DNA from: Candidatus Spechtbacterales bacterium | GTDB taxonomy: Bacteria > Patescibacteriota > Minisyncoccia > Spechtbacterales > 2-12-FULL-38-22 | DNA length: 60,245 bases | Assembly: GCA_040879145.1 (NCBI GenBank) | Contig: JBBDKX010000038.1 | Span: 1-60,245, forward strand | Direction: 5' to 3' | Part shown: positions 2,319 through 42,299 of the stretch, piece by piece | Layout of the letters: every line of letters starts with the position of its first letter | Numbering within the stretch: position 1 is the first letter of the stretch | Program-made: the position numbers and the translations under genes | Notes under the pieces: model-generated | What the model was told of the DNA's origin: nothing | Database searches by the model: none | Seen by the model: the letters and a program-made list of their open reading frames with translations, nothing else

Positions 2319-2349
2319 ACGTACTCAACAGCTACCACAAAACTTTAAA

Positions 2350-7203: not shown

Positions 7204-7250
7204 CCGCCCATAGCTCAATTGGCAGAGCAGTTGCCTCTTAAGCAATTGGT
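7204..7250 (+). pseudogene. 5' fragment of tRNA-Lys (acceptor 5' strand, D arm, anticodon arm; no T arm)
   Basis: 7202-7250 is identical over 49 nt to 7404-7452 of the intact tRNA-Lys. The two copies diverge exactly after ...GCAATTGGT. Confidence 0.8.
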
Positions 7251-7405
7251 CGGGCCCTCTAATTAAAAACTGGGGTGCATTTGACGGGATTTATTTTGCA
7301 AATATTCTAGGCGTTTGGAGTGACGCGATGTTGAAACATCGTTAGCGACAAAGAACACTAAAGATTGGCAAAATAAACCCGCCCTTTTAAAACCCAGTTT
7401 CCAGT
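7251..7405 (+). other. 155-nt structured insert between the tRNA-Lys fragment and the intact tRNA-Lys
   Basis: It contains nested complementary segments. AAACTGGG (7267-7274) pairs with CCCAGTTT (7393-7400). CGGGATTTATTTTGC (7285-7299) pairs with GCAAAATAAACCCG (7368-7381) with one bulged A. There is an inner hairpin at 7325-7342. No ORF is present. Confidence 0.4.
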
Positions 7406-7478
7406 CCGCCCATAGCTCAATTGGCAGAGCAGTTGCCTCTTAAGCAATTGGTTCCAGGTTCAAGTCCTGGTGGGCGGA
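7406..7478 (+). tRNA. tRNA-Lys (anticodon CTT)
   Basis: Cloverleaf: acceptor CCGCCCA/TGGGCGG, D arm GCTC-AATTGGCA-GAGC, anticodon arm GTTGC-CTCTTAA-GCAAT, T arm CCAGG-TTCAAGT-CCTGG, discriminator A. Confidence 0.9.
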
Positions 7479-7536
7479 CTGGGAATTGGGTTGGGGGCAC
7501 AAATCAGACTTTTGCCGGATTTTCATGTGAAAGATA

Positions 7537-15804: not shown

Positions 15805-17010
15805 TTAATATGCCAGATAGTTCCTTGCTCCATGCACTTCCCAGTGCAAATGAGATCCGGTAGAGCGCCCCGTAGAGCCCATATACCCTATAACTTGACC
15901 CTTGGTAACGGATTGGCCTGAAGCAACAGCTGTTTGTATCATGTGCGCATACAAAGTTCGCGTTCCGTTGTAATGATTAATGGTTACATAATTTCCAAAA
16001 CCTCCGTTCCAGCGTCCATTACCAATAGAAATGCCTACGGTACCACTTGCGGCCGCATATATTGGCGTCCACCGAGGTGCGGCTATGTCCACAGCATTGG
16101 TACCGTGAAGCCACTGACTTATGCGCCCCACACCGTTTGTAGGATGCGCGAAATATCCATCTATATTTTGAAGTGAAGAGGCATATCTTGGAGCGCGAGC
16201 CGAAGGTGCGGTACGAGCCGGAGCGGGTTTGGTTCCTCCTGGAATAATAATAGTTTGACCGGCAAATATATGAGTCTCGTTCTCTATTCCATTGGTTTCG
16301 AGTATGTCTGCAATTTCTGCTTTATGGTTTCTTGCGATAACCGAAAGGGTGTCTCCGCTCTTTATCTCATAAAGCACGCCGTCCGTTGGCAAAATACTTA
16401 ATACTTCCCCAGGTTGTATATAATTGGAATCTCTAAAGTGATTGCTCCAAAGCAGTGTCTCCAGCTTTAATCCAAATGAGCGTGCTATCCCGTTTGCCGT
16501 ATCTCCCGGCTTTACGGTGTATTCTGTTATTTCATTGCGTTGCTGAGGGGGTGTATCAGCTATTACCGGTGAGTTGTTTGAAAGTAGTGAACTGCCCTGA
16601 TTTGTAGGAAAGGTTGTATCAAAAGCTCCACCGATAGCAACACTGTCTTCATCTTTAGAAGATACAGCATTAGCGGAATTTAGTAATTTAGCACTTATAA
16701 AAGGTTGTACGCCTGCAAAGTTAGCTTTCTGCGCGTCTTTATCTATAACAACCTCTTCCTGCGCGGATGTGTGTAAAGAAACAAGACCATTAAGCTCTTT
16801 AGTATTAAACATGCTAATTAAGCCGGCTACAAAAATAAAAATAGCGACACCTCTCAAGTAATACAAAAAAATGGAGGAGCCGCCTCTTTTAAAAACCTTT
16901 GCTATAATCATGCGTTTATAGCGCTGTATGTCATCCCTCTTCGCATCCCAAAAATGAGACGAAGAAGAAGGGTCTTGTGGGTTGTTTTGGATAGGATTAT
17001 AGTACCTCAT
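15805..17010 (-). CDS. LysM-domain M23 family metallopeptidase
   Basis: It has an N-terminal TM and two LysM repeats (YTVKPGDTANGIARSF; YEIKSGDTLSVIARNH). The C-terminal M23 motifs are VDIAAP...GNYVTINH...LYAHM and GSTGRSTGSHLHWEV. Confidence 0.85.
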   Translation of the reverse strand: MRYYNPIQNNPQDPSSSSHFWDAKRDDIQRYKRMIIAKVFKRGGSSIFLYYLRGVAIFIFVAGLISMFNTKELNGLVSLHTSAQEEVVIDKDAQKANFAGVQPFISAKLLNSANAVSSKDEDSVAIGGAFDTTFPTNQGSSLLSNNSPVIADTPPQQRNEITEYTVKPGDTANGIARSFGLKLETLLWSNHFRDSNYIQPGEVLSILPTDGVLYEIKSGDTLSVIARNHKAEIADILETNGIENETHIFAGQTIIIPGGTKPAPARTAPSARAPRYASSLQNIDGYFAHPTNGVGRISQWLHGTNAVDIAAPRWTPIYAAASGTVGISIGNGRWNGGFGNYVTINHYNGTRTLYAHMIQTAVASGQSVTKGQVIGYMGSTGRSTGSHLHWEVHGARNYLAY

Positions 17011-20085: not shown

Positions 20086-22044
20086 ATGATGGGCTTATTA
20101 AACCCTCTAAAAAATAATCTAAAAAGACCTTCTCTCAAAAAGGGGTATTATTTGGTGTTACTCCTCTTTTTAGCAACTCCTAAATTTGCTCATGCAAACT
20201 TTTTCCTTGACGCCATAGAGAGGGCTGTTTTAGAGATGGGGTTCTTTCTTATAGGTGGAGCTGTAAGCATACTCTTCTTTATAATAAACTCTGTAATCTA
20301 TACCGCTGTGTGGCTTGCAAGATATATTGCTGAAATGGCAATAAGCCTCTCCCTTTCAATGCCATACACAAGCGGAGATGTCTTTAATGCGGGGTGGCCC
20401 GTTATGCGAGACCTGGCAAACATGGGTCTTATACTAATACTTGTCGGCATAGGCGTCGGCACAATGCTTAACCTTAAGCTAAACAAAGACCGCCTCGCGA
20501 TGTTTTTCCTGGTTGCACTGCTAATAAACTTCACAAATGTAATTACGGGGATAGTTATAGACTTTAGCAATATTATTGGAAGTGTTTTCTTTAATGCCGC
20601 GCAAAACAGCCTGAGCGCCCTCATAGGAGTGTCGCCCTTTGATGTCGCCCTGCAAGCTGGAAGAGAAACGGCACAAACCCTGGAAACCCTGGGAAGCGCG
20701 GAGGAATTTGCCAGCGGAATGATAGGGTTGATAGCCGGTCCTCTTATAACAAGCGTACTTGGAATTATTCTATTTTTTGTATTCATGCTCTTAACGGCGC
20801 TCTTTATAGGAAGAATATTGGCGCTAATGCTTTTAGTTATACTCTCGCCCGTGGCATTTCTCGGACTTATATGGAGCAGTGGAAAGATGCGACAGCTTTG
20901 GAACAAGTGGTGGGATACATTTTTACAGTGGGCGCTTATCGCGGTACCGATGCTCTTTTTTCTGTGGCTTGCCGGTATATTCCTTAATGAAGGAGCGGGT
21001 TACTGTACAGCGAGTCTTCCAAGCGGAGCGGAGCCAATAGAAGAAGCTATAGGATTAGGTGTACTGGATAGCGAGGGTGGGTTTGTGTGTAGGTCTATGC
21101 AATCCTTCCTCGCAATAGGCGCGTTGATTACAGGGGTTGTTATGAGTTTTAAAACAAGCGCGGCCGGAAGCAAAATGATTATAAGCAGAGCACAGCGATT
21201 CCAAAAATGGGGCACAAGCAAAGTAAGGCAGGCCGCCACAGCCCCCGGAAGAGCAGCGGGAAGAGTTGTAAAAAGAGAAAGCGCGAGAACAGTGGGGGCA
21301 GCTGGCACAAGAATAGCAGGATCAAAAGCCGCAAAGGTTCCCGTTATGGGCGGTGCCTTCAGAAGTGCGGGAAGGAGGTTGCAGGGATTTGAAGGAAAAC
21401 AAAGAACAGAGTGGAGAAAACATGAAAAAGATTATACCGGAATGACGTGGGATCAATTACAGGCTCACATAAAAACAGAGAAGGACCCTGATAAATTGGC
21501 TGCTATTATGAATCTGGCAGGTAGAAATCACGCCGACGATCTTGATTCCGCTATTCGAAACAATACAATAGATGACAAGAAAATCAAATCTTATCTAAAT
21601 ATGGCCCAATTTAGAACAACGGAAAAAGGTGAGAATCTACAAGATGCATGGATAAAAAATAATCCCCATCATCTTAAAAAGCATTTAGGAAAAACGGATA
21701 CAGACGTAAGAACAAAAACAGAAAGACTTTCGGCAAATGATTTATACAATCTAACGCTTTCAGCAATCAATGAACGGCATGTTGTTGAAGGTGTAATAAA
21801 AAATGATGACGCAAAAGTGAAGCAATTAAGACATGTTATCAACAAAGTTTCTAAAACAAATAATACTGCTATGAGTACCAACCTAAAAACAAACCTAAAA
21901 AATGCTATAATAGGCAGTTTCAATACCCTTGGACCAAATTCATCCACTCAGAACATATTAACTGAGCTTGACAATGCTGGGGGAAGATGGAAGGAGCTTA
22001 AAAATGCTTTAGAAAATGATCCTGATTTTGCAGGAATACTATAA
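20086..22044 (+). CDS. VirB6/TrbL-like polytopic T4SS membrane protein with basic hydrophilic C-terminal third
   Basis: 652 aa with about 8 or more hydrophobic helices in the first ~380 aa, followed by a Lys/Arg-rich soluble tail. The call rests on topology, size and its position at the head of a VirB3/VirB4 block. Confidence 0.45.
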   Translation: MMGLLNPLKNNLKRPSLKKGYYLVLLLFLATPKFAHANFFLDAIERAVLEMGFFLIGGAVSILFFIINSVIYTAVWLARYIAEMAISLSLSMPYTSGDVFNAGWPVMRDLANMGLILILVGIGVGTMLNLKLNKDRLAMFFLVALLINFTNVITGIVIDFSNIIGSVFFNAAQNSLSALIGVSPFDVALQAGRETAQTLETLGSAEEFASGMIGLIAGPLITSVLGIILFFVFMLLTALFIGRILALMLLVILSPVAFLGLIWSSGKMRQLWNKWWDTFLQWALIAVPMLFFLWLAGIFLNEGAGYCTASLPSGAEPIEEAIGLGVLDSEGGFVCRSMQSFLAIGALITGVVMSFKTSAAGSKMIISRAQRFQKWGTSKVRQAATAPGRAAGRVVKRESARTVGAAGTRIAGSKAAKVPVMGGAFRSAGRRLQGFEGKQRTEWRKHEKDYTGMTWDQLQAHIKTEKDPDKLAAIMNLAGRNHADDLDSAIRNNTIDDKKIKSYLNMAQFRTTEKGENLQDAWIKNNPHHLKKHLGKTDTDVRTKTERLSANDLYNLTLSAINERHVVEGVIKNDDAKVKQLRHVINKVSKTNNTAMSTNLKTNLKNAIIGSFNTLGPNSSTQNILTELDNAGGRWKELKNALENDPDFAGIL

Positions 22045-22045
22045 A

Positions 22046-22570
22046 ATGAAAATAGAATACGCAACATATATTTCTACTAAAAATAAGGCACCTGAAAAAA
22101 TTCTCGAGCTAATAGATTCGGGGGGTGTTGGGAATATTCTTGGTATAATTTATTCAAGGTACGGAATTACAAACCAGAAAATATCCTGTACACAGATTGT
22201 TGGCCACGTACTTGTTGGTCTTATTCCTATAAAACGTTTTATTCAGGCGCTTCAAGAAGATGCGGGTCTTGATGAAAGCACCGCGAAAAACATTGCGCAT
22301 GACGTGCGTGCGGAAATTTTTGCTCCCGTAGCCAGGGAGTTGGCAGCCATGCAGGAGCAGGCGATAAAAAACTGGCAGGAATTACATGCTTCGCAAGAAA
22401 CAAGCAATCCTCAAAATACAAACTTTGAACAAGAGAATGAGAAACTACCGACACCTGACGAAGGTGTTGTAAGAGAAGTTTTTCCGGCACCTGAGGTAAA
22501 CGAAAAAAAATTTGATGACGGTTTGGAAAAATCCCAAAACAAAGAGGAGGAGAAAGATGAAAGATTCTAA
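22046..22570 (+). CDS. Hypothetical protein (T4SS-like locus)
   Basis: The ATG at 22046 (MKIEYATY) lies 1 nt after the upstream stop. It has an acidic C-terminus and no recognisable motif. Confidence 0.4.
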   Translation: MKIEYATYISTKNKAPEKILELIDSGGVGNILGIIYSRYGITNQKISCTQIVGHVLVGLIPIKRFIQALQEDAGLDESTAKNIAHDVRAEIFAPVARELAAMQEQAIKNWQELHASQETSNPQNTNFEQENEKLPTPDEGVVREVFPAPEVNEKKFDDGLEKSQNKEEEKDERF

Positions 22571-23323: not shown

Positions 23324-23974
23324 ATGCCTTCAACAGCAACAACACAAAGTTTTATACCAATAGACAACATCCGAAACGATGTCGTTGTTGTTAAGGGCGG
23401 AGAACTTAGAGCCATACTCCAGGTATCAAGTGTCAACTTTGCCCTAAAAAGCCATGACGAGCAGGAAGCTACCATATACCAATACCAAAACTTTCTTAAC
23501 TCTTTGGATTTTCCCATACAAATACTGGTAAACTCCCGCATGATGAATGTTGATGAGTATGTAGGAACAATACAGGCGATGGAAGCCAAGCAACGTTCCG
23601 ACCTTCTAAAAATGCAGACACAAGAATATGTAAAATTTATACAGCGTTTTGTGCAGGAGGCAAACATAGTCTCCACAGACTTTTATCTTATAGTGCCTTT
23701 CAGTTTAATAGACGTGGCAACAACACAGGGGGGAGCAAATGAAAGAATGAAAAGTCTTATAGGAAAACAAAGTCAACTGGGAACGATGGAGGCCGAAAAA
23801 TTCTTGTACTTCAAAGGACAGTTGATGCAGAGGGTAGACTTTGTTGCGAGTGGTCTTCATAGAATGGGTATATCTGCAAGCATGATGACAACGGAGGAGT
23901 TGGTTTCTCTTTTTTGGAGTATATATAACGGGGGAGACCTCAGAAAACGCGGTGCGATAAAACCAATGTTTTAA
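23324..23974 (+). CDS. VirB4/TrbE N-terminal domain encoded as a separate ORF
   Basis: 216 aa. IPIDNIRNDVVVVKGGELRAILQVSSVNFALKSHDEQEATIYQYQNFLNSLDFPIQILV resembles the CagE/TrbE/VirB4 N-terminal region. It ends with its own TAA stop. Confidence 0.5.
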   Translation: MPSTATTQSFIPIDNIRNDVVVVKGGELRAILQVSSVNFALKSHDEQEATIYQYQNFLNSLDFPIQILVNSRMMNVDEYVGTIQAMEAKQRSDLLKMQTQEYVKFIQRFVQEANIVSTDFYLIVPFSLIDVATTQGGANERMKSLIGKQSQLGTMEAEKFLYFKGQLMQRVDFVASGLHRMGISASMMTTEELVSLFWSIYNGGDLRKRGAIKPMF

Positions 23975-24399
23975 AACAGCTTTTAGCTTCTGGCTTTCAG
24001 CTTATTAGCTTATGATAAATTCTTATAAAGAACTAAAGGTTTGGCAACGCGCAATGGAATTAGTTGTTGCTGTATATGAACTAACCGAAAAATACGCAAA
24101 AGAAGAAACTTATGGATTAACGGCACAAACAAGAAGATCGGTAATTTCTATACCTTCAAATATAGCTGAAGGTAGGCACAGGTCCACAAGAAAAGATTTT
24201 ATAAACTTTTTGATAATAGCTTATGCATCTGGCGCAGAATTAGAAACACAAATAGAAATAGCAAAACGATTACCAAAAACCAAACAATTAAACTATGTAA
24301 AAGTTGATAATCTTTTGGAAGAAGTTATGAAAATGTTAAACATAATGATAAAAAAGTTAAAAGCTAGTAGCTAATAGCTATAAGCTATAAGCTAAACAC
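23975..24399 (+). mobile_element. IVS-like cassette: four-helix-bundle gene flanked by mutually complementary NNAGCTT heptamer arrays
   Basis: The left array is at 23977-24011 and the right array at 24361-24399. The reverse complement of the right array aligns with the left at roughly three quarters of positions by hand. The cassette sits exactly between the two VirB4 pieces. Confidence 0.4.
24012..24374 (+). CDS. Four-helix-bundle protein of the 23S rRNA intervening-sequence protein family
   Basis: 120 aa. YKELKVWQRAMELVVAVYELT, LTAQTRRSVISIPSNIAEGRHRSTRKDFINFLIIAYASGAELETQIEIA is the family pattern as I recall it. Confidence 0.8.
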   Translation: MINSYKELKVWQRAMELVVAVYELTEKYAKEETYGLTAQTRRSVISIPSNIAEGRHRSTRKDFINFLIIAYASGAELETQIEIAKRLPKTKQLNYVKVDNLLEEVMKMLNIMIKKLKASS

Positions 24400-26229
24400 A
24401 TGCCTGAAAACCCACTAAGTGACCAACAACCGAATAACCAACCTCAAAAGGGTCCTCAACCCTTCCAGCAGGCGTACCAGGTGGTGCAGCAGTCTGAACA
24501 AGTGGACAAGCGCAAGCGACTTCTTGATATAATAGCTCCGCCCGCACTTGAGGTTACAGCAAACAATGTAAAGTTGGGGAATACATTCGTCCGTACTCTT
24601 TTTGCTTTCTCTTACCCCAGATATCTGGCAGAAAACTGGTTAAGTCCTATTATAAACATAGATAGAACAGTAGATGTTTCTATATTTATAGAGCCGGCTG
24701 ATACAGCTACCATTATGAAACAGCTTCAAAACCAGTTAACCAGTGTTGAGGCGGAAATGATGGAAAGAGAAGAAAAAGGCCTTGTGCGCGACCCGCTGCT
24801 TGAAGCGGCTTATGAGAACATTGAAGATTTGCGGGACAAAATGCAGACATCCGAAGAAAAAATGTTCAAGTTTGGGCTCTATATTATAATCTACGCAAAA
24901 AGCGAGAAGGAGGTAAACGAGATAGAAAATGAGCTTCGCTCTATTTTAGAAAGCCGTCTTGTATATGTAAAACCGGCCGTGTATCAGCAAAGAGAGGGTT
25001 TTAACTCCGGCCTACCGCTGGGGCTTAATTATCTTAACCTGACAAACAGCATGAACACTTCGCCCCTATCTTCCACCTTTCCTTTTGTTTCGTTTGACCT
25101 AACAATGGATGAGGGAATTCTTTATGGAATAAACCGGCACAATTCAAGTCTTATTCTGTTTGACAGGTTCTCTCTTGAGAACGCCAACACTGTAATACTC
25201 GGAAAATCAGGCGGAGGTAAGAGTTACACCGTAAAACTGGAGGTGCTCCGCTCTATGATGTTTGGAGTGGACGTTATAGTAATAGACCCCGAAAACGAGT
25301 ACCAATACTTGGCAGAAACCACGGGCGGAAGTTTTTTCCGTGTATCTTTAACCAGCGGAGACGAGATAAACCCCTTTGATCTGCGGGAGCCCCAGGAGGA
25401 TGAAAAACCTGAAGAGCTTTTTCGCGCAAACATAATAACCCTTATCGGGCTTTTAAAGATAATGTTGGGAGACATGACGCCGGAAGAAGAGAGTGTTTTA
25501 AACGAGGCTATAATCCAAACATATGACTCGCGTGATATATCTCCGGAAACACCCAGATATTGGGAAAAAACACCACCGTTAATGCAGGACCTGCAAACCG
25601 TACTGCAAAATATGGAGGGAGGCGCAAGTTTAGCGCAACGCCTTCTTAAATACACGGATGGCGTATACTCAGGATTTTTAAATAAGCAAACAAATGTAAG
25701 CCTTGAAGGACAGCTTGTTGTGTTTAATATTCGGGATATGGAAGATGAACTTCGTCCCGTAGCTATGTACCTTATAATTAACTATGTATGGAATGCTATA
25801 AGGCGCACACTAAAGAAAAGAATGCTCGTAATTGACGAGGCGTGGTGGATGCTTCAACATCATGAAAGCGCGGCATTTCTTTTTGGTATCGCCAAAAGAG
25901 CAAGAAAATACTACCTCGGGGTTACAACAATAACCCAGGACATAGAAGACTTTTCTACGAGCGACTATGGAAGAGCGATTATCACAAACTCATCCCTGCA
26001 GATATTAATGAAACAGTCTCCGGCAACAATAGACCAACTCCAAAGAATATTTAACCTTACAGATGAAGAAAAATATCTTCTATTAGAAGATAATGTAGGG
26101 GAAGGACTTTTCTTTGCGGGAACAAAACATGTCGCAATAAAAGTTATAGCCTCTTACATAGAAGACCAGATAATAACTTCGGATCCCGAACAACTCTTAC
26201 AAATAGAAGAGTCTAAGGATCGGTTATAA
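24400..26229 (+). CDS. virB4: VirB4-type T4SS ATPase (central and C-terminal part)
   Basis: 609 aa. It has IAPPALEV...RTLFAFSYPRYL, Walker A ILGKSGGGKSYT, Walker B RMLVIDEAWWML and the downstream motif GVTTITQDIEDF. Confidence 0.85.
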   Translation: MPENPLSDQQPNNQPQKGPQPFQQAYQVVQQSEQVDKRKRLLDIIAPPALEVTANNVKLGNTFVRTLFAFSYPRYLAENWLSPIINIDRTVDVSIFIEPADTATIMKQLQNQLTSVEAEMMEREEKGLVRDPLLEAAYENIEDLRDKMQTSEEKMFKFGLYIIIYAKSEKEVNEIENELRSILESRLVYVKPAVYQQREGFNSGLPLGLNYLNLTNSMNTSPLSSTFPFVSFDLTMDEGILYGINRHNSSLILFDRFSLENANTVILGKSGGGKSYTVKLEVLRSMMFGVDVIVIDPENEYQYLAETTGGSFFRVSLTSGDEINPFDLREPQEDEKPEELFRANIITLIGLLKIMLGDMTPEEESVLNEAIIQTYDSRDISPETPRYWEKTPPLMQDLQTVLQNMEGGASLAQRLLKYTDGVYSGFLNKQTNVSLEGQLVVFNIRDMEDELRPVAMYLIINYVWNAIRRTLKKRMLVIDEAWWMLQHHESAAFLFGIAKRARKYYLGVTTITQDIEDFSTSDYGRAIITNSSLQILMKQSPATIDQLQRIFNLTDEEKYLLLEDNVGEGLFFAGTKHVAIKVIASYIEDQIITSDPEQLLQIEESKDRL

Positions 26230-26230
26230 T

Positions 26231-26635
26231 ATGACTGAGAAAATAAACAAAAGAATAAAAGAGGCGGCAGCAAAAAAAGCTGAGCAGGAGGAAAAAGACC
26301 CTTACGAAAATGTACCAGGCTTGGGCAGTCCTGAGGCATTTTTGTGGCTTATGTGGGCCTTTATACTTGATATGATGGGGGTATTAAGCGCCATATTAAT
26401 ACTTGTGTTTGGTGTGGGTCTCGCAATCTCTATTGCTGTTGATATTTTAGCAATGGGCACAATAGGCGTATATATGTACTTTAAAACAAAACACATGCCT
26501 ACAGGGAAAAGAGTGGCGCGTGCGGCAAAAAGAACGGGTTTGGTGTCCGCAATTGAAGCTGTACCCGTACTTGGTGACATAGCGTTTTCATGGACCATTT
26601 ATCTTTTTATGGAATTTAGCAAAGGAAAAGCATAA
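26231..26635 (+). CDS. Small three-TM membrane protein (T4SS-like locus)
   Basis: 134 aa with a charged N-terminus followed by three hydrophobic helices. It is tightly packed between neighbours, and its stop overlaps the next gene's start (ATAATG). Confidence 0.4.
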   Translation: MTEKINKRIKEAAAKKAEQEEKDPYENVPGLGSPEAFLWLMWAFILDMMGVLSAILILVFGVGLAISIAVDILAMGTIGVYMYFKTKHMPTGKRVARAAKRTGLVSAIEAVPVLGDIAFSWTIYLFMEFSKGKA

Positions 26636-27732
26636 TGAAACTCTACATCAAAAAATCAGTTATAGGGTTCTTGTTTTTACTGATATTTTTACTATTTAGT
26701 GCTCCTTCTTTCGCATTAGCCCTTGAGCTTGACTACCCGACAATTCCAACACCAATAGGGCCTCTAGACTTAGACACCATAACAGACGAGGGGGGGTTTA
26801 CCGTAGCTGGTCTTATTGTGTTTATTTATGGAGCCGCTATTTGGATTGCCGGAATACTTGCTTTTATTTCTCTTGTGTACGTGGGGTTTGTTTACATACT
26901 TTCCGGCTCAGGCATGGTGGGGCGCGGAAAGGCCCTCCGCAGATTAAAAAATGTGCTGTGGGGACTGGTTATATTATTATTCGTTACAGCACTTTTAAAT
27001 GTGGTAAATCCTGAAATTTTAAACTTAGAAGACTCTCTTGTTGTAGCTGTTGCGCCTAACGATAAAACATATCAGGAGGTAGAGTTTGAAGGGTTTAAGT
27101 TTGAAGGATTTTTTGTTGACAATGGTAGTGGAGGCGGTGGCACTGGAGATGGTGAGGAGCCTGTCATATCTTGCCAAGAACAGTGTTTGGCTAAATGTGG
27201 TGGCATGCCGGCTTGCGAAACAGAGTGTTTTAAACTTCCCCCTTGTCCTGAGTTAGCATGTCCAGTTCTGCGGGTTACAAGCTCTTTTACTGCGTACTGT
27301 TACGACAGGGGAAGCGCGCGCCACAACGGGCACGATGTTATGGCCAACGAAGGAACTCCTATATACGCAATGGAGGCGGGAACACTGGACAGGGTGGGGT
27401 GGATAGATTCCGGAGGGTGTCGTTTGTGGATAATTGGCACTCAATCTGGAAGAGCTTATGCACATTTACACATGGGTACTACATTAGATTGTTCTGATGC
27501 ATTCGGTTCTGGAATAAGGGAGGGGGCAACTGTTGTTGCAGGGCAAACACTGGGATATGTGGGCACAACATACAATGGACGTGCAGATGGTACTGTTGCA
27601 CACTTACACTTAACAATTGTTAAGCCCAGCGGAAGTGAAGAATGTAGTCCACCACCCCTCAGTGGAAATTATGGCGGACCAACAATGGACGGAGCTCCTC
27701 TTTTTAAACAAGCTGGGTGTCCGTTTACATAA
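26635..27732 (+). CDS. Pilin-module protein fused to a C-terminal M23 metallopeptidase domain
   Basis: In order: signal peptide, LELDYPTIPTPIGPLDLD, TM hairpin (AIWIAGILAFISLVYVGFVYILSGSGMVGRGKALRRLKNVLWGL), Gly-rich linker, a Cys cluster, then M23 motifs HNGHD, AHLHM and GTVAHLHL. Confidence 0.65.
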   Translation: MKLYIKKSVIGFLFLLIFLLFSAPSFALALELDYPTIPTPIGPLDLDTITDEGGFTVAGLIVFIYGAAIWIAGILAFISLVYVGFVYILSGSGMVGRGKALRRLKNVLWGLVILLFVTALLNVVNPEILNLEDSLVVAVAPNDKTYQEVEFEGFKFEGFFVDNGSGGGGTGDGEEPVISCQEQCLAKCGGMPACETECFKLPPCPELACPVLRVTSSFTAYCYDRGSARHNGHDVMANEGTPIYAMEAGTLDRVGWIDSGGCRLWIIGTQSGRAYAHLHMGTTLDCSDAFGSGIREGATVVAGQTLGYVGTTYNGRADGTVAHLHLTIVKPSGSEECSPPPLSGNYGGPTMDGAPLFKQAGCPFT

Positions 27733-27763: not shown

Positions 27764-28513
27764 ATGCAGCCAACAAACTCCACAACAAAGAAAAAGATAG
27801 TGTTTTTACTTATAGTATCTTTAGTGCTTGTTATGTTGTTGTTTTTCATACAACTATTAACAAACCAGGGCACAACAGATCCGCGTGACGAAGAAAGAAC
27901 TGTGCCTCCTGGAACAATTGGTAATGAGGAGTATTTAATAGAGAATCCGGAACTACCAAAAACAAGTTGGCAAAGGAAGGTAGAGATACAAAAAGAAGAT
28001 GGTATGCAAACCGTAACAAATTTTTATGACGGATACCGCATTGATGTATCAAGTGATTGGGAAATTGTAGAAGAAGTAAGGGGGGGGCTGGGTGGTTTAA
28101 ATTTACTTTACGGACAGCATGAAGAAGATATAAACGAATACGAAACAGAACAACACATACACGACGGTCTCGTTCTTAGTGTTGTTGTTTTTGAAAATGA
28201 AGAAGGGTTTAACCTAATAGACTGGCTGGCCCGATCAGACAATCATGGAAGTTTTCTGTTTGGAGCCGAACTTAGGGAAGTGCCAAGTGATTTATACAAA
28301 ATTTATAAAACCGAAAGGCCCCTAACAGAAGACCGGTTCATAGATGGCAAGATAGTAGATGCTCAAATAGAAGACACGCTATCCTCTAAGTACATAATAA
28401 AAGATCCTAAAATAGACTCGGTTTATGTTTTAATTTGCACTATATATAACAATGTAAACACACTAGTTCCTCTTTGCGAAGAAGCTATGCAAGGGTTTAA
28501 CATACTAAAATAG
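27764..28513 (+). CDS. Bitopic hypothetical protein (VirB8-like size and topology, unverified)
   Basis: 249 aa with one N-terminal TM and a ~210-aa extracytoplasmic domain. There is no motif-level evidence. Confidence 0.35.
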   Translation: MQPTNSTTKKKIVFLLIVSLVLVMLLFFIQLLTNQGTTDPRDEERTVPPGTIGNEEYLIENPELPKTSWQRKVEIQKEDGMQTVTNFYDGYRIDVSSDWEIVEEVRGGLGGLNLLYGQHEEDINEYETEQHIHDGLVLSVVVFENEEGFNLIDWLARSDNHGSFLFGAELREVPSDLYKIYKTERPLTEDRFIDGKIVDAQIEDTLSSKYIIKDPKIDSVYVLICTIYNNVNTLVPLCEEAMQGFNILK

Positions 28514-28516
28514 GCT

Positions 28517-29500
28517 ATGAATATTTTGAACAAATTTCGTTCAAACACAGTTGGTATACTTTTTTTTGTTATACTTTTTAGCATTATCACGCCTCACGCA
28601 GATGCGTTAACCTTGGAATTAAACTATCCGGAGATTCCAACGCCCACAGGGTCTATAGACTTAAACTGTCTGGAAATAGGGCTTTGCGACCTTAGTATCG
28701 CGCTGTTGCTTGTTGTCTTTTATGGAGCAAGTGTGTGGATAGCAGGTATACTGGCTTTTTTGGCTTTAATTTTTGCAGGAATGTCCTATATTATAAGCGG
28801 GGCCAGCCCCGGCGCGCGCGCACGCGCTAATGAAAGATTTATAAATGTTCTGTGGGGACTTTCCATTTTACTCCTTGCAAATGCTATAATATATACAGTA
28901 AACCCACAACTAATAACCGGGTTTGAAGACCCTTTGTTTCCGACAGCATCTTCAGGGTCTACAGAGTATGAAGAGATATACTTTACAAGCGAAGGGTTGT
29001 TAATAAGAGGGGGCTCAAGCGGTACAGGAGGAACAAGTGGAGGTGGGGGTGGAGGAGGCGGTACACCCTCATCCTGTAGTAGTGCAGAAGTTGTGGAAAA
29101 TGGCACAAATGAAACCTACAACCATGAAGGGTCCTCAACCGCAGAGATACAAAACACAGTATCCCAACAACTACGGGCAGAGCTTTCAGCTGGTGGATTA
29201 TCAACAGCACAAGTAGAAGATTACGCAAACTACTTCTTCACCACAGTTATACCTTGTGAAAGCACCTGGGTTCCTCACGCAGAAAACGAAGGGGGAACAA
29301 ATTGTATGGCAGTCGGGTTGTACCAGTTAGAGGATAACAGGTATGGAAAACAGGCTTGTAGGGCAGAGTATCACAGGTGGCACCACTGGCAATGCGAAAC
29401 ATCACATGCTGTAGATAGGTTTTTTGAAATAAGAAACAACAGACCAGGGTGCTCGGGTTGGGAGTACTGGGAATGCGCAAAAACAAGGTGGACCTGTTAG
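28517..29500 (+). CDS. Pilin-module protein fused to a Cys-rich lytic-transglycosylase-like domain
   Basis: It has LELNYPEIPTPTGSIDLN, the TM hairpin SVWIAGILAFLALIFAGMSYIISGASPGARARANERFINVLWGL, and a poly-Gly linker. The C-terminal CESTWVPHAENEGGTNCMAVGLYQL resembles the ES...GLxQ signature of SLT-type enzymes. Confidence 0.5.
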   Translation: MNILNKFRSNTVGILFFVILFSIITPHADALTLELNYPEIPTPTGSIDLNCLEIGLCDLSIALLLVVFYGASVWIAGILAFLALIFAGMSYIISGASPGARARANERFINVLWGLSILLLANAIIYTVNPQLITGFEDPLFPTASSGSTEYEEIYFTSEGLLIRGGSSGTGGTSGGGGGGGGTPSSCSSAEVVENGTNETYNHEGSSTAEIQNTVSQQLRAELSAGGLSTAQVEDYANYFFTTVIPCESTWVPHAENEGGTNCMAVGLYQLEDNRYGKQACRAEYHRWHHWQCETSHAVDRFFEIRNNRPGCSGWEYWECAKTRWTC

Positions 29501-29521: not shown

Positions 29522-30031
29522 ATGCCACAAAAAACCAAAATAATACTGTTCTTACTATTTGTGACAACATCGCTTGCTCTTGTGTTTTGGGGGGCCTACA
29601 AAACAAGGGATATTATTGATAATGAGCCTGCGAGTATAACAAATACAACTGGCTCACCAATACAAATACCTGGGGAGACTGTGCAAAAGTTTAATGAAAA
29701 AGGAAACGAGTCACAAGATGCTAAAATTTTAAAGCAAAATCTTATATCCCCCCTGCAGGGAAATTCGGGAACCATACACCAAACAACTGAATATCGTATA
29801 GACTACATACCTCATCCGGACACATTTATGGTAGAAATACTTGCTGCAGACTTTAAAAATGCCCAGGACTCAGTTTTTGGATGGTTTTTAGCTCAAGGGT
29901 TTTCAAGAAGCGACGTGTGTAGTATGAAAATACTATTCTACTTAAGTGGTGCGGTGAAAAATTACTATCAACAAAATGAGCAAACAATAATTTTTAACCC
30001 CGTTTTTGAGCACTGTGATGCAGATTTTTAA
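29522..30031 (+). CDS. Bitopic hypothetical protein
   Basis: 169 aa with an N-terminal TM (IILFLLFVTTSLALVFWGA). No motif is recognised. Confidence 0.35.
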   Translation: MPQKTKIILFLLFVTTSLALVFWGAYKTRDIIDNEPASITNTTGSPIQIPGETVQKFNEKGNESQDAKILKQNLISPLQGNSGTIHQTTEYRIDYIPHPDTFMVEILAADFKNAQDSVFGWFLAQGFSRSDVCSMKILFYLSGAVKNYYQQNEQTIIFNPVFEHCDADF

Positions 30032-30034
30032 ACC

Positions 30035-31630
30035 ATGAGAATGAGTATTTCTAAAAAAACAACTTTTATACTGCTGCTCTCTCTGTTCTTAACAGGATTC
30101 TTTGTAATTTTAAATACCAGCCCCGCTTCAGCCCAAACTTCCTGTACACGTTGTAGTAATAATTATAGTTTTTCTTACGCAGAATGGACGGCAGTTACTG
30201 CGTGCGACCCCTACGGAGGCGAACCTGTTACCTACACTCAGGATAATTCTTGTACGGGACATAACTGTGGTAATGGGGCTTGTGAAAACGATGGATTCAA
30301 CTTTGAAACCTCAACCAACTGCCCTTCTGACTGTTCTTCATCCACATCAACACCCAGCGACACGTGCCAACGGTGTAGCCTTAACTATCCGGGATGCTGG
30401 TCTACGTGGGACAATATTGATGATAGCGACTGTGTAGCTCCCACAACAACAGATGAAATAAGCTCTGTAGAATACACCCCCACAGGATGCACAACCGGAG
30501 AGCCTATAGACAGAAGGTGTGCGGAAGGGCCTGCATGCGGTCGCTGTAGCCTTAACTATCCGGGATGTTGGGCAGTGTGGATAGATATTGATGAAAATGG
30601 ATGCACGGCTCCGAACTCTTTAAATGAGAATATAACTGTTATATATACTCCAGCGGGGTGTCAGTCCGGAAATGACTTTGACCGACGTTGCAACTTTGAC
30701 AGATTGAATGTAAATTATCCAATTGTACAAACACCGAACGGTCCCTTAGACATAAACAGCCTATACACAGGGGGTAATGTTACAATGGCGACCATTGTCT
30801 TGTTTGCATACGCGGCCTCCATATGGGTCGCGGGAATTCTTGCTTTTGTGGCTCTCATTTACGCTGGCTTTATATTTATACTATCGGGCGGAAATCCAGG
30901 CAAAAGAGTTAAAGCCAAAAAACAATTTACCGATGTTTTGTGGGGACTGTTGGTGGTTCTTTTGGTGCCTGTGATAATGAACTACATAAACCCCACAAGC
31001 GCTCTTTTGCGCGACCCCAATCTTTTGGGTGTAGATGGTAGTGACAAAGAGTTTCAATTGCCCTTATTTAGCCAGGAGGGAGATTTCGACATGGCGGCGT
31101 GCTTAAATGCGGGCAACACAACAGATTATTGTCTTGATACCTGCATAGAAGGGAGTGGGGATGATTCCATCCTAAGCTGTTCAATAGGAGCTGCGAATTG
31201 GATAATGAGCAAATGTGAATCCTCCGGAACAGCTACTAGTACTTGTGTGGATCAGTGTACAAACGAACTAATAAGCACGGGGTGGTATAACGATGCAACA
31301 AGAACAGATGCGGAATCCATTTGCGCAGGCACGGGGTCAAGTGGAGGCACTGGGGAAGGAGGGACATTCAGCACCACAGAAGAAGATAATATGTTTGTCT
31401 CATGCGCTACCATACTAGGAATTACAAACTCAAGCCTTGTGCCTTTCAGTATAAACTCAGAGCGTAACCAAGTTTTATGTGACGCACCAAGCACAGCTTC
31501 GTGGGACAACAATACCTGGTGTAGTTCTTGCTCTGATAACGGTGGAGATATTACTTCCTGTAACAATTATATAGGCAACACGTCGGGCGGTTGCTGTGAC
31601 AGGTTTAATGGATCATGCCCAACAAGTTAA
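30035..31630 (+). CDS. Cys-rich repeat protein with an internal pilin module
   Basis: It has a signal peptide and two clear ~57-aa repeats (C.RCSLNYPGCW...DRRC) preceded by a degenerate copy. These are followed by LNVNYPIVQTPNGPLDIN, the TM hairpin SIWVAGILAFVALIYAGFIFILSGGNPGKRVKAKKQFTDVLWGL, and a Cys-rich C-terminal region. Confidence 0.55.
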   Translation: MRMSISKKTTFILLLSLFLTGFFVILNTSPASAQTSCTRCSNNYSFSYAEWTAVTACDPYGGEPVTYTQDNSCTGHNCGNGACENDGFNFETSTNCPSDCSSSTSTPSDTCQRCSLNYPGCWSTWDNIDDSDCVAPTTTDEISSVEYTPTGCTTGEPIDRRCAEGPACGRCSLNYPGCWAVWIDIDENGCTAPNSLNENITVIYTPAGCQSGNDFDRRCNFDRLNVNYPIVQTPNGPLDINSLYTGGNVTMATIVLFAYAASIWVAGILAFVALIYAGFIFILSGGNPGKRVKAKKQFTDVLWGLLVVLLVPVIMNYINPTSALLRDPNLLGVDGSDKEFQLPLFSQEGDFDMAACLNAGNTTDYCLDTCIEGSGDDSILSCSIGAANWIMSKCESSGTATSTCVDQCTNELISTGWYNDATRTDAESICAGTGSSGGTGEGGTFSTTEEDNMFVSCATILGITNSSLVPFSINSERNQVLCDAPSTASWDNNTWCSSCSDNGGDITSCNNYIGNTSGGCCDRFNGSCPTS

Positions 31631-32598
31631 AGATTAAAAAACTGTTTTTTTTAAACATCCTTATTTTCATTGGGTTATTTTTTGTTTTAAACATATCAAA
31701 CGCCCAAACACTAAATCTTGACTACCCGCCGCTTAGGGTGCCGGGAGGGATTTTTGATTTAAACGACGCTTATGAGTCGGGAAAAGTCGGATTAAGACAA
31801 GTAATAATTCTCTTTTATGTACTTACTCTTTGGTCTTCAGGGATTTTAGCTTTTGTACTACTTATCTACACTGGACTTGTTTACATAATATCCGGAGGTA
31901 AGCCGGCGAAAAGAAAAGAGGCATTTCAAAAGTTTAAAAACGTCTGGATAGGAGTTGCGGTGCTTTTATTCTCCTTTTTCTTTTTAAATATTTTAAATCC
32001 CGGCATAACAAATTTGGACCTTTACGTTTTTCTATCTACCACAGGTGGCGGCACAGACTACAATTTTGATACAGATATTGCTTTTGCTCTGCCTAAAAGC
32101 CAGGCCTTAACGGCAGAGGAGGCCGGGACCTTTACTTGCCAATGGACAGGCGCTGACTGTGTCGCGAATATTAATAACTGCAACGAGGGCTTCAGTCCAG
32201 ACTGCCATTTTGGCACCAACCACGACAGCGCCAGTTATTCTGATTTTTGCACAGAAGCACAAGACAATGGACAAGCGTTCGTTTGCGTAAAAGAAGCCTC
32301 AGATATTTCTTCCTCCGAAGGATCTGGTGAGCCCGAACCACCCCCCGGTGCTGATGGTATAGACTCTACTGAAGAGGGCGTCTTAAGACAAGATTGTACT
32401 AATTATTCTATAGGAGCAAGATATGACACAGAAGATGTAGCTGGAAACAGCTATTTCTACTGCGATACAGGGATTTTAACAGACACGTTTGCGACCAGCT
32501 GGCGCAACAAATGCTTGAATGATTTCTCAGGACATGAAAGCGGTGTTTTAGATTCAAATAATGAGGCCAGGCTGTATTGCGGTTACTTAGTAAACTAA
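31615..32598 (+). CDS. Pilin-module protein with Cys-rich C-terminal domain
   Basis: It has LNLDYPPLRVPGGIFDLN plus LWSSGILAFVLLIYTGLVYIISGGKPAKRKEAFQKFKNVWIG, then a Cys-rich acidic domain. Its start overlaps the upstream gene by 16 nt. Confidence 0.5.
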   Translation: MPNKLKIKKLFFLNILIFIGLFFVLNISNAQTLNLDYPPLRVPGGIFDLNDAYESGKVGLRQVIILFYVLTLWSSGILAFVLLIYTGLVYIISGGKPAKRKEAFQKFKNVWIGVAVLLFSFFFLNILNPGITNLDLYVFLSTTGGGTDYNFDTDIAFALPKSQALTAEEAGTFTCQWTGADCVANINNCNEGFSPDCHFGTNHDSASYSDFCTEAQDNGQAFVCVKEASDISSSEGSGEPEPPPGADGIDSTEEGVLRQDCTNYSIGARYDTEDVAGNSYFYCDTGILTDTFATSWRNKCLNDFSGHESGVLDSNNEARLYCGYLVN

Positions 32599-39761: not shown

Positions 39762-42299
39762 TTACTCTATTTTAAATATAAAACTACTTTTACCTGTATT
39801 GGTAAGAGTGTCAAAAACTTCCACTAAAATTTGGTGGGAGTTATTTTTTTGAAGGTCCTGTAAGGATATGTTTTTTGTTATCTTTACCGAATATATTCCT
39901 GTATTGGAATACGTATTTCTTAATATCTCTTCTCCGTTTAAGTACACAAAAGATTTTTCAAGAGGATTATTAGAGTTTATCTGTATATCAAGAAACATCG
40001 TTTCTTCTTCAGAAAAAGAACGTTTGGATGGGCTTAAGTATGAAACAATAAAAGGCCCTACAATTTCTGTTGGTATTTCTTCGTCTGTAAAATCTCTCTC
40101 ATCTGTTTCGGTGTCTGAATCTAAATTATTTAATATTGCCCAATTTCTTACAGCGTCCTCCCAGTTTTTATATTGGGGGTTTGAGTTTGGATTGTTTGGA
40201 TTATCACCTAAAGGATTATTCAAAGATATATAGTGCAATATGTTGTGGTATCCTGTCATAACACCATCCAATACCGGTTTGTTTGTTTTCTCTACCATTG
40301 GACGTATAAAAGACCTCTCGTTGTTTATAGAGGGGAGAGAAAAGTAAGAACCTCTTCCTTTAAATTCGGATGACTCCACAGATTTTTTTTGATAAACTTT
40401 GCGCATAAAACTATTCCATATAGGAGCTGCCGCTTGTGACCCGGGAGCTTGATACATTGTTGCGTTGTTGTTATTTCCAACCCAAACACCGGCAGCAATG
40501 CTTGGGGTATATCCAACAGTCCAAGCATCTCTGTAGTCCTGTGTTGTGCCGGTTTTCACTGCAACACTTAAGCCCGGAATAACTAAACTGTTTTGTTCGC
40601 CAAAAACCCTGGAACGATAATCATTTATGCTTAGAATATGATTGATTTGGTCTGCGATATTTTTTTCTAAAACCTGCTGACTGTTTTTAGTATGCTCTTC
40701 TAATATTTTCCCGTTTTTGTCCTGGACACGCAAAATCATTGTTGCGGGGTTGCGTTCTCCGCGTGCGGCAAAAACACCAAAAGCAGATGTTTCCTCAAGA
40801 AGGGTAACATCACCTCCTCCCAGTACCAAAGAAAGACCGTAACGAGAGCTTTCTTGAAGACTCTCTATTCCCATTTCATTAGCTAACTTTATGGTGTCAT
40901 TTATACCAGCTAAATATAATACTTTTACAGCGGGGACATTTCTTGATTGTGCCAAAGCCTCCTTGAGAGTGATTTTCCCGAAGTATTGAAGGTCATAATT
41001 TCTTGGATGGTAACAATTTAAACCGGAATCTTCTTTTTCCTGATTTGCAGAAGAAGAACAGTTTGGATTAAATTCCGTAAGAACATCAAAAACTAAAGTG
41101 TCCGGAGTATAGCCCTTCTTAAAAGCCTGAGCATAAGCAAAAGGCTTAAAAGATGACCCGGGTTGTTGAGGAGATGTAGATATATTAACCTGCGGATCAA
41201 ATAAACACGCTCGTCCTGATGTGCATCCTTCGGGCTCTGATTTACCAAAATAATCCCTAGAACCCACCATCGCCAAGATATGTCCTGTATAAGGATCTAT
41301 TGCCACCAGAGATGCGTTATGAGCATTGAAGTTTCTAATATTATAATTTGCACGCTCATCAACAGCTTCTTCAGCGGCTTCTTGAACAGTTTTGTCTAAG
41401 GTTGTAACAACCCTAAGACCGGCTTGCTGCACGTAAGACGGTCCGTACTTGTTTTCAAGATATTGTTTTACCTCAATAACAAAATGAGGAGCTTGTATGA
41501 AGCTTGCGATAGGTTGGAACTCTATCTCCTCGTTTATAGCTTCTGTGTGCTCCTCTTCCGTTATGTACCCCAAAGAAAGCATTTTGTTTAAAATATTTTT
41601 TTGACGCACCAACAGGTCTTCTCTGTTAGCGTTGTAGTAAGAGGGAGCGTTGGGTAGGGCGGCAAGTATTGCTGATTCGGCAATAGTTATGTCTTTCGCG
41701 CTTTTGTCAAAATATGTCTGGGCTGCAGCCTCTGTGCCATATGCGCTGTTGCCGTAAGGTACCTGGTTTAAATAGAGCATTAATATTTCATCTTTTGAGT
41801 ATTTTAGTTCTAACTCTATAGCCAATATTGCCTCCTTTATTTTTCTTGGAAAAGTTCTTTCGGAAGTTAAAAACGCATTTTTTATAAATTGTTGTGTAAG
41901 AGTGCTTCCGCCCTGGCTTATGCCACCACCTTTTAGGTTTGTTACAACAGCTCTTGCTATTCCACGTATGTCCAAGCCCATATGATGATAGAACTGATCA
42001 TCCTCGGCTACAATCGTTGCCCAACGCACATAATCTGCCATGTCTTCGTAGGAAACAACAGTTCTTTTTTGTTCACCGTGGATATCATACAAGACAACAG
42101 TTTCTGTTCTGTCCAGTATTTTTGTGGACTCAGGTACAAAAAGATCACTCAAAGCCTCGGGAGAGGGTAGGTCTTTAGAGTAGTAAATAAAGAGAAACGC
42201 GACAAAAACACACCCCAAAAAAAGAGCTAATCCAAACCATTCTAATATTTTCATTTTATTTCTCCAAAAAAAATCAAAGAAACTTGATATGTGGCGCAT
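39762..42299 (-). CDS. Class A penicillin-binding protein (GT51 transglycosylase plus transpeptidase) with ~150-aa C-terminal extension
   Basis: The GT51 motifs are EDDQFYHHMGLD, GGSTLTQQ and RKIKEA. The transpeptidase motifs are GSSFKPF, SRN and KTGTT. An alternative ATG lies at 42254. Confidence 0.9.
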   Translation of the reverse strand: MRHISSFFDFFWRNKMKILEWFGLALFLGCVFVAFLFIYYSKDLPSPEALSDLFVPESTKILDRTETVVLYDIHGEQKRTVVSYEDMADYVRWATIVAEDDQFYHHMGLDIRGIARAVVTNLKGGGISQGGSTLTQQFIKNAFLTSERTFPRKIKEAILAIELELKYSKDEILMLYLNQVPYGNSAYGTEAAAQTYFDKSAKDITIAESAILAALPNAPSYYNANREDLLVRQKNILNKMLSLGYITEEEHTEAINEEIEFQPIASFIQAPHFVIEVKQYLENKYGPSYVQQAGLRVVTTLDKTVQEAAEEAVDERANYNIRNFNAHNASLVAIDPYTGHILAMVGSRDYFGKSEPEGCTSGRACLFDPQVNISTSPQQPGSSFKPFAYAQAFKKGYTPDTLVFDVLTEFNPNCSSSANQEKEDSGLNCYHPRNYDLQYFGKITLKEALAQSRNVPAVKVLYLAGINDTIKLANEMGIESLQESSRYGLSLVLGGGDVTLLEETSAFGVFAARGERNPATMILRVQDKNGKILEEHTKNSQQVLEKNIADQINHILSINDYRSRVFGEQNSLVIPGLSVAVKTGTTQDYRDAWTVGYTPSIAAGVWVGNNNNATMYQAPGSQAAAPIWNSFMRKVYQKKSVESSEFKGRGSYFSLPSINNERSFIRPMVEKTNKPVLDGVMTGYHNILHYISLNNPLGDNPNNPNSNPQYKNWEDAVRNWAILNNLDSDTETDERDFTDEEIPTEIVGPFIVSYLSPSKRSFSEEETMFLDIQINSNNPLEKSFVYLNGEEILRNTYSNTGIYSVKITKNISLQDLQKNNSHQILVEVFDTLTNTGKSSFIFKIE

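Follow-up and report, generated by a model that had tools for sequence, protein, structure and literature searches.

How the type IV secretion systems (T4SSs) of Patescibacteria cross the cell wall is not understood, nor is their function, yet they are essential for growth on hosts. A gene at positions 26635–27732 (forward strand) of a 60,245-nucleotide stretch from an uncultured, ultrasmall Candidatus Spechtbacterales bacterium (the window; GenBank assembly GCA_040879145.1, contig JBBDKX010000038.1) puts the question in concrete form: what is a wall-cutting peptidase doing on a subunit that resembles a T4SS pilin? An earlier note, made from the letters of the window, had proposed that the product of this gene, here called M23-pilin, is an M23 peptidase domain tethered to a T4SS pilin-like module and linked to virB4. 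This proposal is borne out by a profile match, aligned catalytic residues, the predicted fold, homology to neighboring paralogs and synteny, and chance similarity does not account for these features. It is considered highly probable that the gene encodes an intact, outward-facing M23 domain on a VirB2-like hairpin of a T4SS.

The chromosomal T4SSs of Patescibacteria comprise a monoderm-type VirB4 and arrays of 2–11 VirB2-like genes, lie adjacent to the origin and mostly lack a relaxase; most genomes with VirB2 homologs have no VirB1 homolog (PMC12102498). Epibiotic growth of Southlakia epibionticum, the one Patescibacterium tested in this respect, requires both the T4SS and the pilin array that belongs to it (PMC10633639; PMC12857230).

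Architecture of the M23-Pilin

The gene starts with ATG, sharing one base with the stop codon of the upstream gene (TAATG) and preceded by AGGA. Five parts follow one another from the N to the C terminus, namely a signal peptide, a VirB2-like hairpin, a Gly-rich linker, a Cys-rich spacer of the CX3C type and the M23 domain, as follows:

26635..27732, + strand: whole gene, 365 amino acids (Pfam M23 match above threshold, T4SS_pilin match below it; full-length orthologs P0002 and P0003; AF2 model)
26635..26721, + strand: predicted Sec signal peptide, residues 1–29 (sequence and hydropathy profile; helix 2–22 in the AF2 model)
26722..26775, + strand: conserved acidic N-terminal motif of the mature module, LELDYPTIPTPIGPLDLD (module alignment)
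26803..27006, + strand: VirB2-like helical hairpin, helices 57–89 and 94–124 (PF18895 match 64–124, pLDDT ~90, hydropathy)
27031..27168, + strand: disordered Gly/acidic linker, residues 133–178, including GSGGGGTG (pLDDT <50)
27172..27261, + strand: Cys-rich spacer CX3CX3C...CX3C, with short helices 180–188 and 191–200 (Cys positions; low model confidence)
27262..27639, + strand: predicted zinc endopeptidase domain of the M23 (LytM/lysostaphin) type (Pfam, PDB alignments, Foldseek, ortholog conservation)

The profile search that the earlier note had called for gives a clear result: Peptidase_M23 (Pfam PF01551) matches residues 229–330 over profile positions 2–89 of 96, at 42.4 bits against a gathering score of 28.7 (E 7.9e-11). 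The best PDB-chain matches obtained with phmmer are a Ruminococcus LytM-like enzyme (3nyy, E 5.4e-9), lysostaphin, StM23 and LytM. In these alignments the HxxxD zinc ligands appear as H230-N-G-H-D234, facing HYGVD of lysostaphin and HEGTD of 3nyy, the HxH motif as H323-L-H325, facing HLH of lysostaphin, 3nyy and StM23, and the middle catalytic histidine as H279, facing the His of YMHL/YAHL (YxHL). A further histidine, H277, lies on the same strand two residues before H279, and of the pair only H279 is kept in P0003. The motifs on which the earlier claim was staked thus fall on the catalytic residues of solved M23 enzymes. HNGHD (residues 230–234) and AHLHL (322–326) were correctly read as HxxxD and HxH, but AHLHM (276–280), taken for a second HxH, is the motif of the middle catalytic histidine.

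H230, D234 and H325 are the predicted Zn ligands and H279 and H323 the predicted catalytic residues, an assignment that follows the alignments and not the zinc-site geometry of the model; all five are invariant in P0002 and P0003. With every catalytic residue intact, the domain is apparently active. The core of the domain is modeled at pLDDT 82–93, and the top Foldseek matches are exclusively M23 enzymes (StM23, LytM, lysostaphin; 9gy1, 2b13, 4qpb), with a probability of 1.00 and TM-scores, normalized by target length, of 0.68–0.79. In Pfam scans up to an E-value of 1, M23 and T4SS_pilin were the only families matched in the M23-pilin, SLT and CHAP being absent. The window encodes a second M23 protein outside the T4SS operon (15805–17010, reverse strand; PF01551 at 100 bits), which carries two LysM domains and is a typical housekeeping autolysin of the NlpD/MepM type.

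The N-terminal module is more than a cleaved signal peptide, which had been the other point on which the proposal could have failed. The leader has a K-rich n-region, a hydrophobic core and an AxA motif, A27-L28-A29, after which it is presumably cleaved. Beyond it lies the conserved motif LxLDYPxIPxPxG, in which L30, Y34, P35, P40 and G42 are invariant among nine module sequences, followed by the two long helices joined by the basic loop GRGKALRRLK. Since the loop holds five basic residues and the flanking segments read as acidic, the hairpin is predicted to have both termini outside and the loop in the cytoplasm, which would place the M23 domain on the outer face.

The module is 36–43% identical to those of three downstream paralogs, which score above the PF18895 threshold (26.8–32.6 bits), and the four copies are detectable even at the DNA level. 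Weak NCBIfam matches connect it to pilin-like conjugal transfer proteins of mycoplasma integrative and conjugative elements and to p028 of pLS20. To judge by this homology, the M23-pilin would belong to the PF18895/VirB2-like module family, although it is not a plain pilin: whereas small pilins have ~70–130 residues when mature, this protein has 365, with ~230 residues past the module.

The Gly linker and Cys cluster described earlier are both present, as GSGGGGTG at residues 164–171 and as a series of cysteines from C180 onward. The length of the linker differs among orthologs, and in a co-occurring strain the linker is rich in indels. All 12 cysteines of the protein are in its predicted extracytoplasmic part, and C180, C188, C198, C204 and C209 are invariant across the three orthologs; the pattern suggests that the spacer is probably a disulfide-stapled hairpin.

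The T4SS Operon and its Chromosomal Setting

The genes between 20086 and 32598 are all on the forward strand and are separated by tiny gaps or overlap. Upstream of the M23-pilin they comprise:

20086–22044, + strand: TrbL/VirB6-like (Pfam TrbL_4, weak)
22016–22570, + strand: open reading frame of 184 amino acids
22745–23185, + strand: PrgI/VirB3-like (Pfam PrgI, 41.8 bits against a threshold of 27)
23324–23974, + strand: TraC-like protein of 216 amino acids (orthologs in loci L001 and L007 are PF26593 TraC-like)
24012–24374, + strand: 23S rRNA intervening sequence protein, four-helix, Avd-like (PF05635, E 8e-36)
24400..26229, + strand: VirB4-type ATPase, CD1110 family (NCBIfam NF045971, 377.8 bits against a cutoff of 325; Pfam P-loop_TraG)
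26231..26635, + strand: membrane protein of 134 amino acids between virB4 and the M23-pilin (position kept in L001, 147 amino acids, and L007, 154 amino acids)

The 134-residue membrane protein has no family match in Pfam or NCBIfam. The cluster is flanked by uvrD and ksgA on one side and by genes for a MurJ-like flippase, jag, yidC, rnpA, dnaA, dnaN and a class A penicillin-binding protein (39762–42299) on the other, the last of which indicates that the organism makes peptidoglycan. Profile scans of the cluster genes revealed no further recognizable wall hydrolase in the operon, and no coupling protein or relaxase. By gene content and location near dnaA the operon matches the published Patescibacteria T4SS type (MPF-FATA-like clade). 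The window matches sediment metagenomes, and among named organisms its nearest relative is a Candidatus Spechtbacterales MAG.

The Avd-like gene, placed between the TraC-like gene and virB4, is absent from that position in L001/L002 and L007. It suggested a diversity-generating retroelement, a candidate that was rejected: the region 20–36 kb has no pair of template and variable repeats, the four pilin modules being its only repeats, and no reverse transcriptase was found among the scanned open reading frames. G+C content falls to 0.29–0.34 between 36000 and 40000, around dnaA/dnaN, which is probably the replication origin region, and is also low at the left end (1–2000). A weak 51-nucleotide Rfam tRNA match at 7204–7254 (31.6 bits), located between tRNA-Arg (5509–5583) and tRNA-Lys (7406–7479) and not called by ARAGORN, could represent either a piece of a tRNA or a tRNA of unusual form.

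Pilin-Like Paralogs and Partner Genes

Downstream of the M23-pilin, the array continues with three paralogs and two genes for membrane-anchored proteins, referred to below as partners:

27764..28513, + strand: partner gene, type-II membrane-anchored protein of 249 amino acids (directly 3' of the M23-pilin; no Pfam family)
28517..29500, + strand: paralog B, pilin module and C-terminal domain with an SLT-like motif (PF18895, 27.3 bits)
29522..30031, + strand: membrane-anchored partner of 169 amino acids after the SLT-like pilin (orthologs in L001, L003 and L007)
30035..31630, + strand: paralog C, Cys-rich N-terminal domain, pilin module (residues ~215–335) and Cys-rich C-terminal domain (PF18895, 32.6 bits)
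31615..32598, + strand: paralog D, pilin module and C-terminal domain of unassigned type (PF18895, 26.8 bits; translation)

All four array members of the window carry large extra domains. The C-terminal domain of paralog B contains the motif ES...GLYQLED, which resembles the catalytic region of SLT lytic transglycosylases, and its assignment as SLT-like is suggestive only. The SLT match lies below threshold (E 0.086; E 0.0019 for the L001 ortholog), and hhalign against the SLT domains of family members gave a probability of 45% over 32 columns. A profile of the domain matched no PDB chain, the AF2 model (mean pLDDT 48.5) was too poor for a fold search, and a word-index search with the domain retrieved one protein, too few for a deep alignment. 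If the SLT assignment is real, pilin hairpins of this operon bear a glycosidase as well as a peptidase.

In paralog C, both parts flanking the module are very rich in Cys and match no known domain; within the N-terminal part a sequence is repeated (CQRCSLNYPGCWSTWDNIDDSDC / CGRCSLNYPGCWAVWIDIDENGC).

Orthologs of the 249-residue partner, with identities of 33–47%, are found directly 3' of the M23-pilin in L001 (5283–6032), L003 (3393–4124), L007 (9688–10386) and L008. These proteins have 232–249 residues, one N-terminal membrane helix, a predicted outward-facing domain and a conserved Cys pair. The partners of the SLT-like pilin are shorter (~157–171 residues; L001 7115–7630, L003 715–1209, L007 7517–7990). 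Pairs of hydrolase-pilin and partner remain together though the order of the array changes. The partner proteins match no known family in Pfam; they may be immunity proteins or regulators.

Recurrence of Hydrolase-Hairpin Fusions

Two full-length homologs of the M23-pilin were retrieved by a word-index search, P0002 with 46% identity and P0003, also from Spechtbacterales, with 34%. The locus of P0003 (L001/L002) runs from PrgI, the TraC-like gene and VirB4 through the 147-codon gene to the M23-pilin and a gene for a 249-residue protein, and onward to dnaA; the synteny of the window is present as well in GCA_040879075.1 (L007). On the contig of P0002 (L003) the array is permuted and the M23-pilin lies inside it, not beside virB4. 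The idea that homologs are always adjacent to virB4 therefore holds in a looser form: they are situated within virB4-linked pilin arrays in four loci, the window and three others, though not always directly next to virB4.

The design recurs more widely. An exhaustive HMM search with a profile of the hairpin gave 14,771 representative proteins with E-values up to 1e-3, of which 744 reached 1e-10 or better, and the best 150 relatives are mostly 300–1,100 residues long. Among 140 close relatives from this search that were scanned with Pfam, T4SS_pilin was matched in 121 and TrbC in 6, Peptidase_M23 in 11, SLT in 6, SLT_3 in 2, VanY in 1 and a beta/gamma-crystallin domain in 3, so that roughly a seventh of the nearest family members combine a hydrolase with a hairpin. 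The M23 domain follows the hairpin in P0077, P0061, P0153 and P0097 and precedes it in P0124, P0080, P0095, P0096 and P0071, as would be expected if both ends of the hairpin are extracytoplasmic. In P0077, encoded within the VirB4 array beside dnaA in L007, an SLT-like motif, the hairpin and M23 occur in this order on one protein. Two other searches have a narrower reach. A word-index search with the alignment of pilin modules returned only five short PF18895 proteins and missed the window's own, and is uninformative; a pattern scan of GTDB species genomes returned the known Spechtbacterales locus, an unrelated M23 protein of Bacillales and one pilin of Saccharibacteria, and is too narrow to describe distribution.

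The M23 domain of the window is 35–44% identical to stand-alone M23 domains of other bacteria, the closest of which belong to ordinary MepM/NlpD-like proteins, and 27–36% identical to other pilin-fusion M23 domains, P0002 excluded. A single origin of the fusion was considered and is ruled against by this likeness to stand-alone domains and by the occurrence of M23 on either side of the hairpin; these identities and domain orders suggest instead that the fusions arose by repeated domain shuffling.

Further variation within the family was noted in passing. A related strain co-occurs in the same sediment sample (run X1, regions 27072–27236 and 28565–29031; depth ~21 against ~52–73) and matches the pilin modules; it shows many linker indels, and in the enzyme domain and the partner gene its identity drops to <80%. 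To judge by this strain, the hairpin seems to change more slowly than the domains appended to it. Between 7 and 16 pilin hairpins occur in tandem on single polypeptides in P0106 (1046 residues; seven PF18895 and three TrbC stretches), P0064 (1147), P0081 (1775) and P0073 (966); such chains point to lateral packing of the modules, a matter of relevance to the choice between a fiber and a membrane ring. In L003, two array members (2–694 and 2109–3362) have a nearly identical Cys-rich linker cassette, KSCFDNSDCS.GE.CSFSDP.DP.SGSCVST, suggestive of recombination or gene conversion between paralogs. The array of L001 encodes an extra pilin-module protein (8825–10093) with the C-terminus CFGADCGTFVG…GDILLSRTIPGHVSIWL, which by eye looks like a Cys/His hydrolase of the NlpC-P60 or CHAP type, although Pfam finds neither domain there at E ≤ 0.05.

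Comparison with Known Systems

The operon shares with the described Patescibacteria T4SSs (Quinonero-Coronel et al. 2025, PMC12102498; Wang et al. 2023, PMC10633639) the monoderm-type VirB4, the PrgI/VirB3 and VirB6-like genes, an array in which PF18895 genes of divergent sequence are in places set apart by non-pilin genes, and the siting beside ksgA, rnpA, dnaA and dnaN, with neither a relaxase nor a coupling protein evident among the scanned genes of the window cluster. In those papers array members are treated as pilins and hydrolases are discussed separately, whereas in the window every array member has a large extra domain. Fusions of pilin modules to M23 or SLT, and paired partner genes, are mentioned nowhere in their searchable text and supplements. 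The T4SS type itself is known; array "pilins" that carry wall-hydrolase domains, together with their paired partner genes, were not found in the papers and supplements searched.

Membrane-anchored hydrolases encoded in the T4SS operon and acting outside the cytoplasm are a feature of monoderm systems as well (PrgK of pCF10, TraG of pIP501, CwlT, TcpG). PrgK combines LytM (of the M23 fold), SLT and CHAP domains, but neither HxxxD nor HxH is present in its LytM domain, which is inactive (PMC11323569), while the M23-pilin has all catalytic residues. The anchors also differ: in PrgK one transmembrane helix follows a cytoplasmic domain, whereas the anchor here is a VirB2-like hairpin, and domain types united on one protein in PrgK are distributed in the window over separate hairpin proteins, the peptidase on one and the SLT-like domain on another; P0077 of L007 joins both. 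The earlier statement that T4SSs normally use a separate VirB1-type hydrolase is right for Gram-negative systems but not for monoderm T4SSs, whose hydrolases are usually membrane-anchored (PMC11323569). What is unusual in the M23-pilin is the VirB2-like kind of anchor together with an intact M23 site, and not tethering as such. VirB1 of Gram-negative bacteria is presumed to do the same job, the local opening of peptidoglycan, but is a soluble periplasmic lytic transglycosylase (PMC11323569), in contrast to a predicted membrane-tethered metallo-endopeptidase; as the M23-pilin has no SLT, CHAP or NlpC-P60 domain, it would be at most a functional analog of VirB1 and not a homolog.

With lysostaphin, LytM and StM23 (MEROPS family M23) the enzyme domain shares the fold and the five catalytic and zinc-binding residues at only 22–27% identity. 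It lacks the SH3b or LysM targeting domain of that group, and targeting would come from the hairpin; its extra cysteines suggest disulfides. The bacteria-killing T4SSs of Xanthomonadales likewise have T4SS-linked M23, SLT and similar wall hydrolases (X-Tfes), each encoded beside a small cognate envelope protein (X-Tfi) (PMC6536674). X-Tfes are recognized by VirD4 through a C-terminal XVIPCD and pass through a diderm T4SS, whereas the M23-pilin has a Sec leader and a pilin-like hairpin, and neither XVIPCD nor VirD4 was detected for its system. The partner gene lies downstream of the M23-pilin, whereas the cognate gene of an X-Tfe lies upstream, and an immunity role for the M23-pilin partner is a candidate one.

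Proposed Role and Alternatives

The mechanism that we favor, and to which we give an even chance of being right in full, its role at the cell's own wall included, makes the M23-pilin the tethered wall endopeptidase of the secretion system itself. As one of four VirB2-like (PF18895) subunits of a chromosomal, monoderm-type T4SS in Patescibacteria, probably in a member of Paceibacteria, it would be exported by Sec and, once the leader is cleaved, would lie in the membrane as a two-helix hairpin with the basic loop in the cytoplasm and both ends outside, the outer face bearing a flexible linker of ~45 residues, the Cys-rich spacer and the M23 domain. This domain would be a catalytically competent zinc endopeptidase that cuts the peptide cross-links of peptidoglycan. 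The four paralogs have closely similar hairpins, and that of the M23-pilin is proposed to co-assemble with the other three at the VirB4/VirB3/VirB6 machine, and wall cutting would thereby be focused where the apparatus or fiber must cross the producer's own wall. The M23-pilin would then be the functional equivalent of VirB1 or PrgK, acting with the neighboring SLT-like pilin fusion, and the downstream membrane-anchored partner would probably control or neutralize the enzyme. The own wall is favored as the substrate because monoderm T4SSs depend on membrane-anchored wall hydrolases (PrgK is essential for conjugation; PMC11323569), because no other recognizable hydrolase was found in the operon and most Patescibacteria with VirB2 are without VirB1, and because the tether holds the enzyme near the membrane of its producer.

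A number of points weigh against this mechanism. The hairpin of the M23-pilin scores below the gathering threshold of its family (T4SS_pilin, PF18895: residues 64–124, 20.1 bits against 26.6, E 6.7e-4); activity, zinc binding, topology and localization are all predictions from sequence and model; and the hairpin could be a simple anchor of the enzyme instead of a component of the T4SS or of a pilus. The 60-kb window encodes no short, plain pilin, so that the nature of a putative fiber is uncertain. The host wall could equally be the target, given the epibiotic lifestyle and a T4SS essential to it (PMC10633639), and an effector with an adjacent downstream partner is a layout typical of weapon/immunity pairs (PMC6536674). 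Finally, the C-terminal domains diverge faster than the hairpin, both between orthologs and between co-occurring strains, and such divergence of the enzyme fits a changing partner better than housekeeping at the own wall.

These last points lead to the strongest alternative, possible though on the unlikely side, in which the modules polymerize or insert at the contact with the host and present the M23 and SLT-like domains to host peptidoglycan, opening the host wall for attachment, nutrient uptake or the passage of effectors, while the partners serve as immunity proteins that guard the producer's own wall. It would suit a T4SS and pilin array that epibiotic growth requires (PMC10633639; PMC12857230) and that lacks parts needed for conjugation, a relaxase being absent from most clusters (PMC12102498) and unseen among the scanned genes of this one. 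The hydrolase/partner cassettes, intact despite permuted arrays, recall the X-Tfe/X-Tfi pairs with their M23 and SLT effectors (PMC6536674). The diversity of the appended domains (M23, SLT, VanY, crystallin-like, Cys-rich) points in the same direction, as does the fast divergence of the enzyme part relative to the hairpin. In conjugative pili the pilin termini are on the outer surface, and if this holds here, a domain joined to either terminus would be exposed on the outside. The loop of conjugative pilins faces the lumen, and their termini are adjacent and can be joined covalently, as in the cyclic H-pilin (PMC12037004). Against a host-directed fiber, however, no pilus has been seen for this system, and the partner genes have no recognizable inhibitor fold or family. 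We know of no precedent for a fiber with a 20–40 kDa domain on every subunit, and the window holds no plain pilin that could act as diluent.

The missing short pilin would be accounted for if the VirB2-like part were a carrier or pro-domain that inserts into the membrane and is cut after helix 2, releasing a soluble M23 enzyme and a short mature pilin. The long disordered linker after helix 2 would permit this, and C-terminal processing is documented in the VirB2 family, where TrbC loses 27 residues and TrhA 5 (PMC12037004); a free pilin from paralog C, in which the LxLNYP motif is internal, would need an N-terminal cut as well. We regard such processing as improbable, since the known trimming removes from a few to 27 residues and not ~230, no conserved cleavage motif is evident past helix 2, and the scanned cluster genes include no peptidase of the TraF/TrhF type. 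Least probable by far is a housekeeping autolysin for cell separation or growth, with the hairpin as generic anchor and the proximity to the T4SS accidental. M23 enzymes are common in such roles and the closest stand-alone domains are MepM/NlpD-like, but the anchor is specifically homologous to the other three pilin modules of the array, the place of the gene inside virB4-linked arrays is kept in four loci, and the typical LysM and M23 protein is encoded separately.

Significance

To the problem of how these T4SSs pass the wall, the locus offers a concrete answer, namely that in this lineage the wall cutters would be built into pilin-like subunits, an intact M23 domain in one and an SLT-like domain next door. 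The occurrence of hydrolases on either outward-facing end of the hairpin amounts to a simple architectural rule, one that speaks for the predicted topology. Should the enzymes be turned toward the host, they would represent a new way of arming the fiber of a secretion system. A broader and rather doubtful proposal is that the VirB2-like "pilins" of many Patescibacteria are no plain fiber subunits but form a modular display system, in which copies of one conserved hairpin, co-assembled at the T4SS, would carry interchangeable outward enzymes or binding domains (M23, SLT, VanY, Cys-rich), each with an immunity-like partner, and build an enzyme-studded fiber or pore through the host wall; if true, this would explain why a T4SS and pilin array without conjugation parts are essential for epibiotic life.

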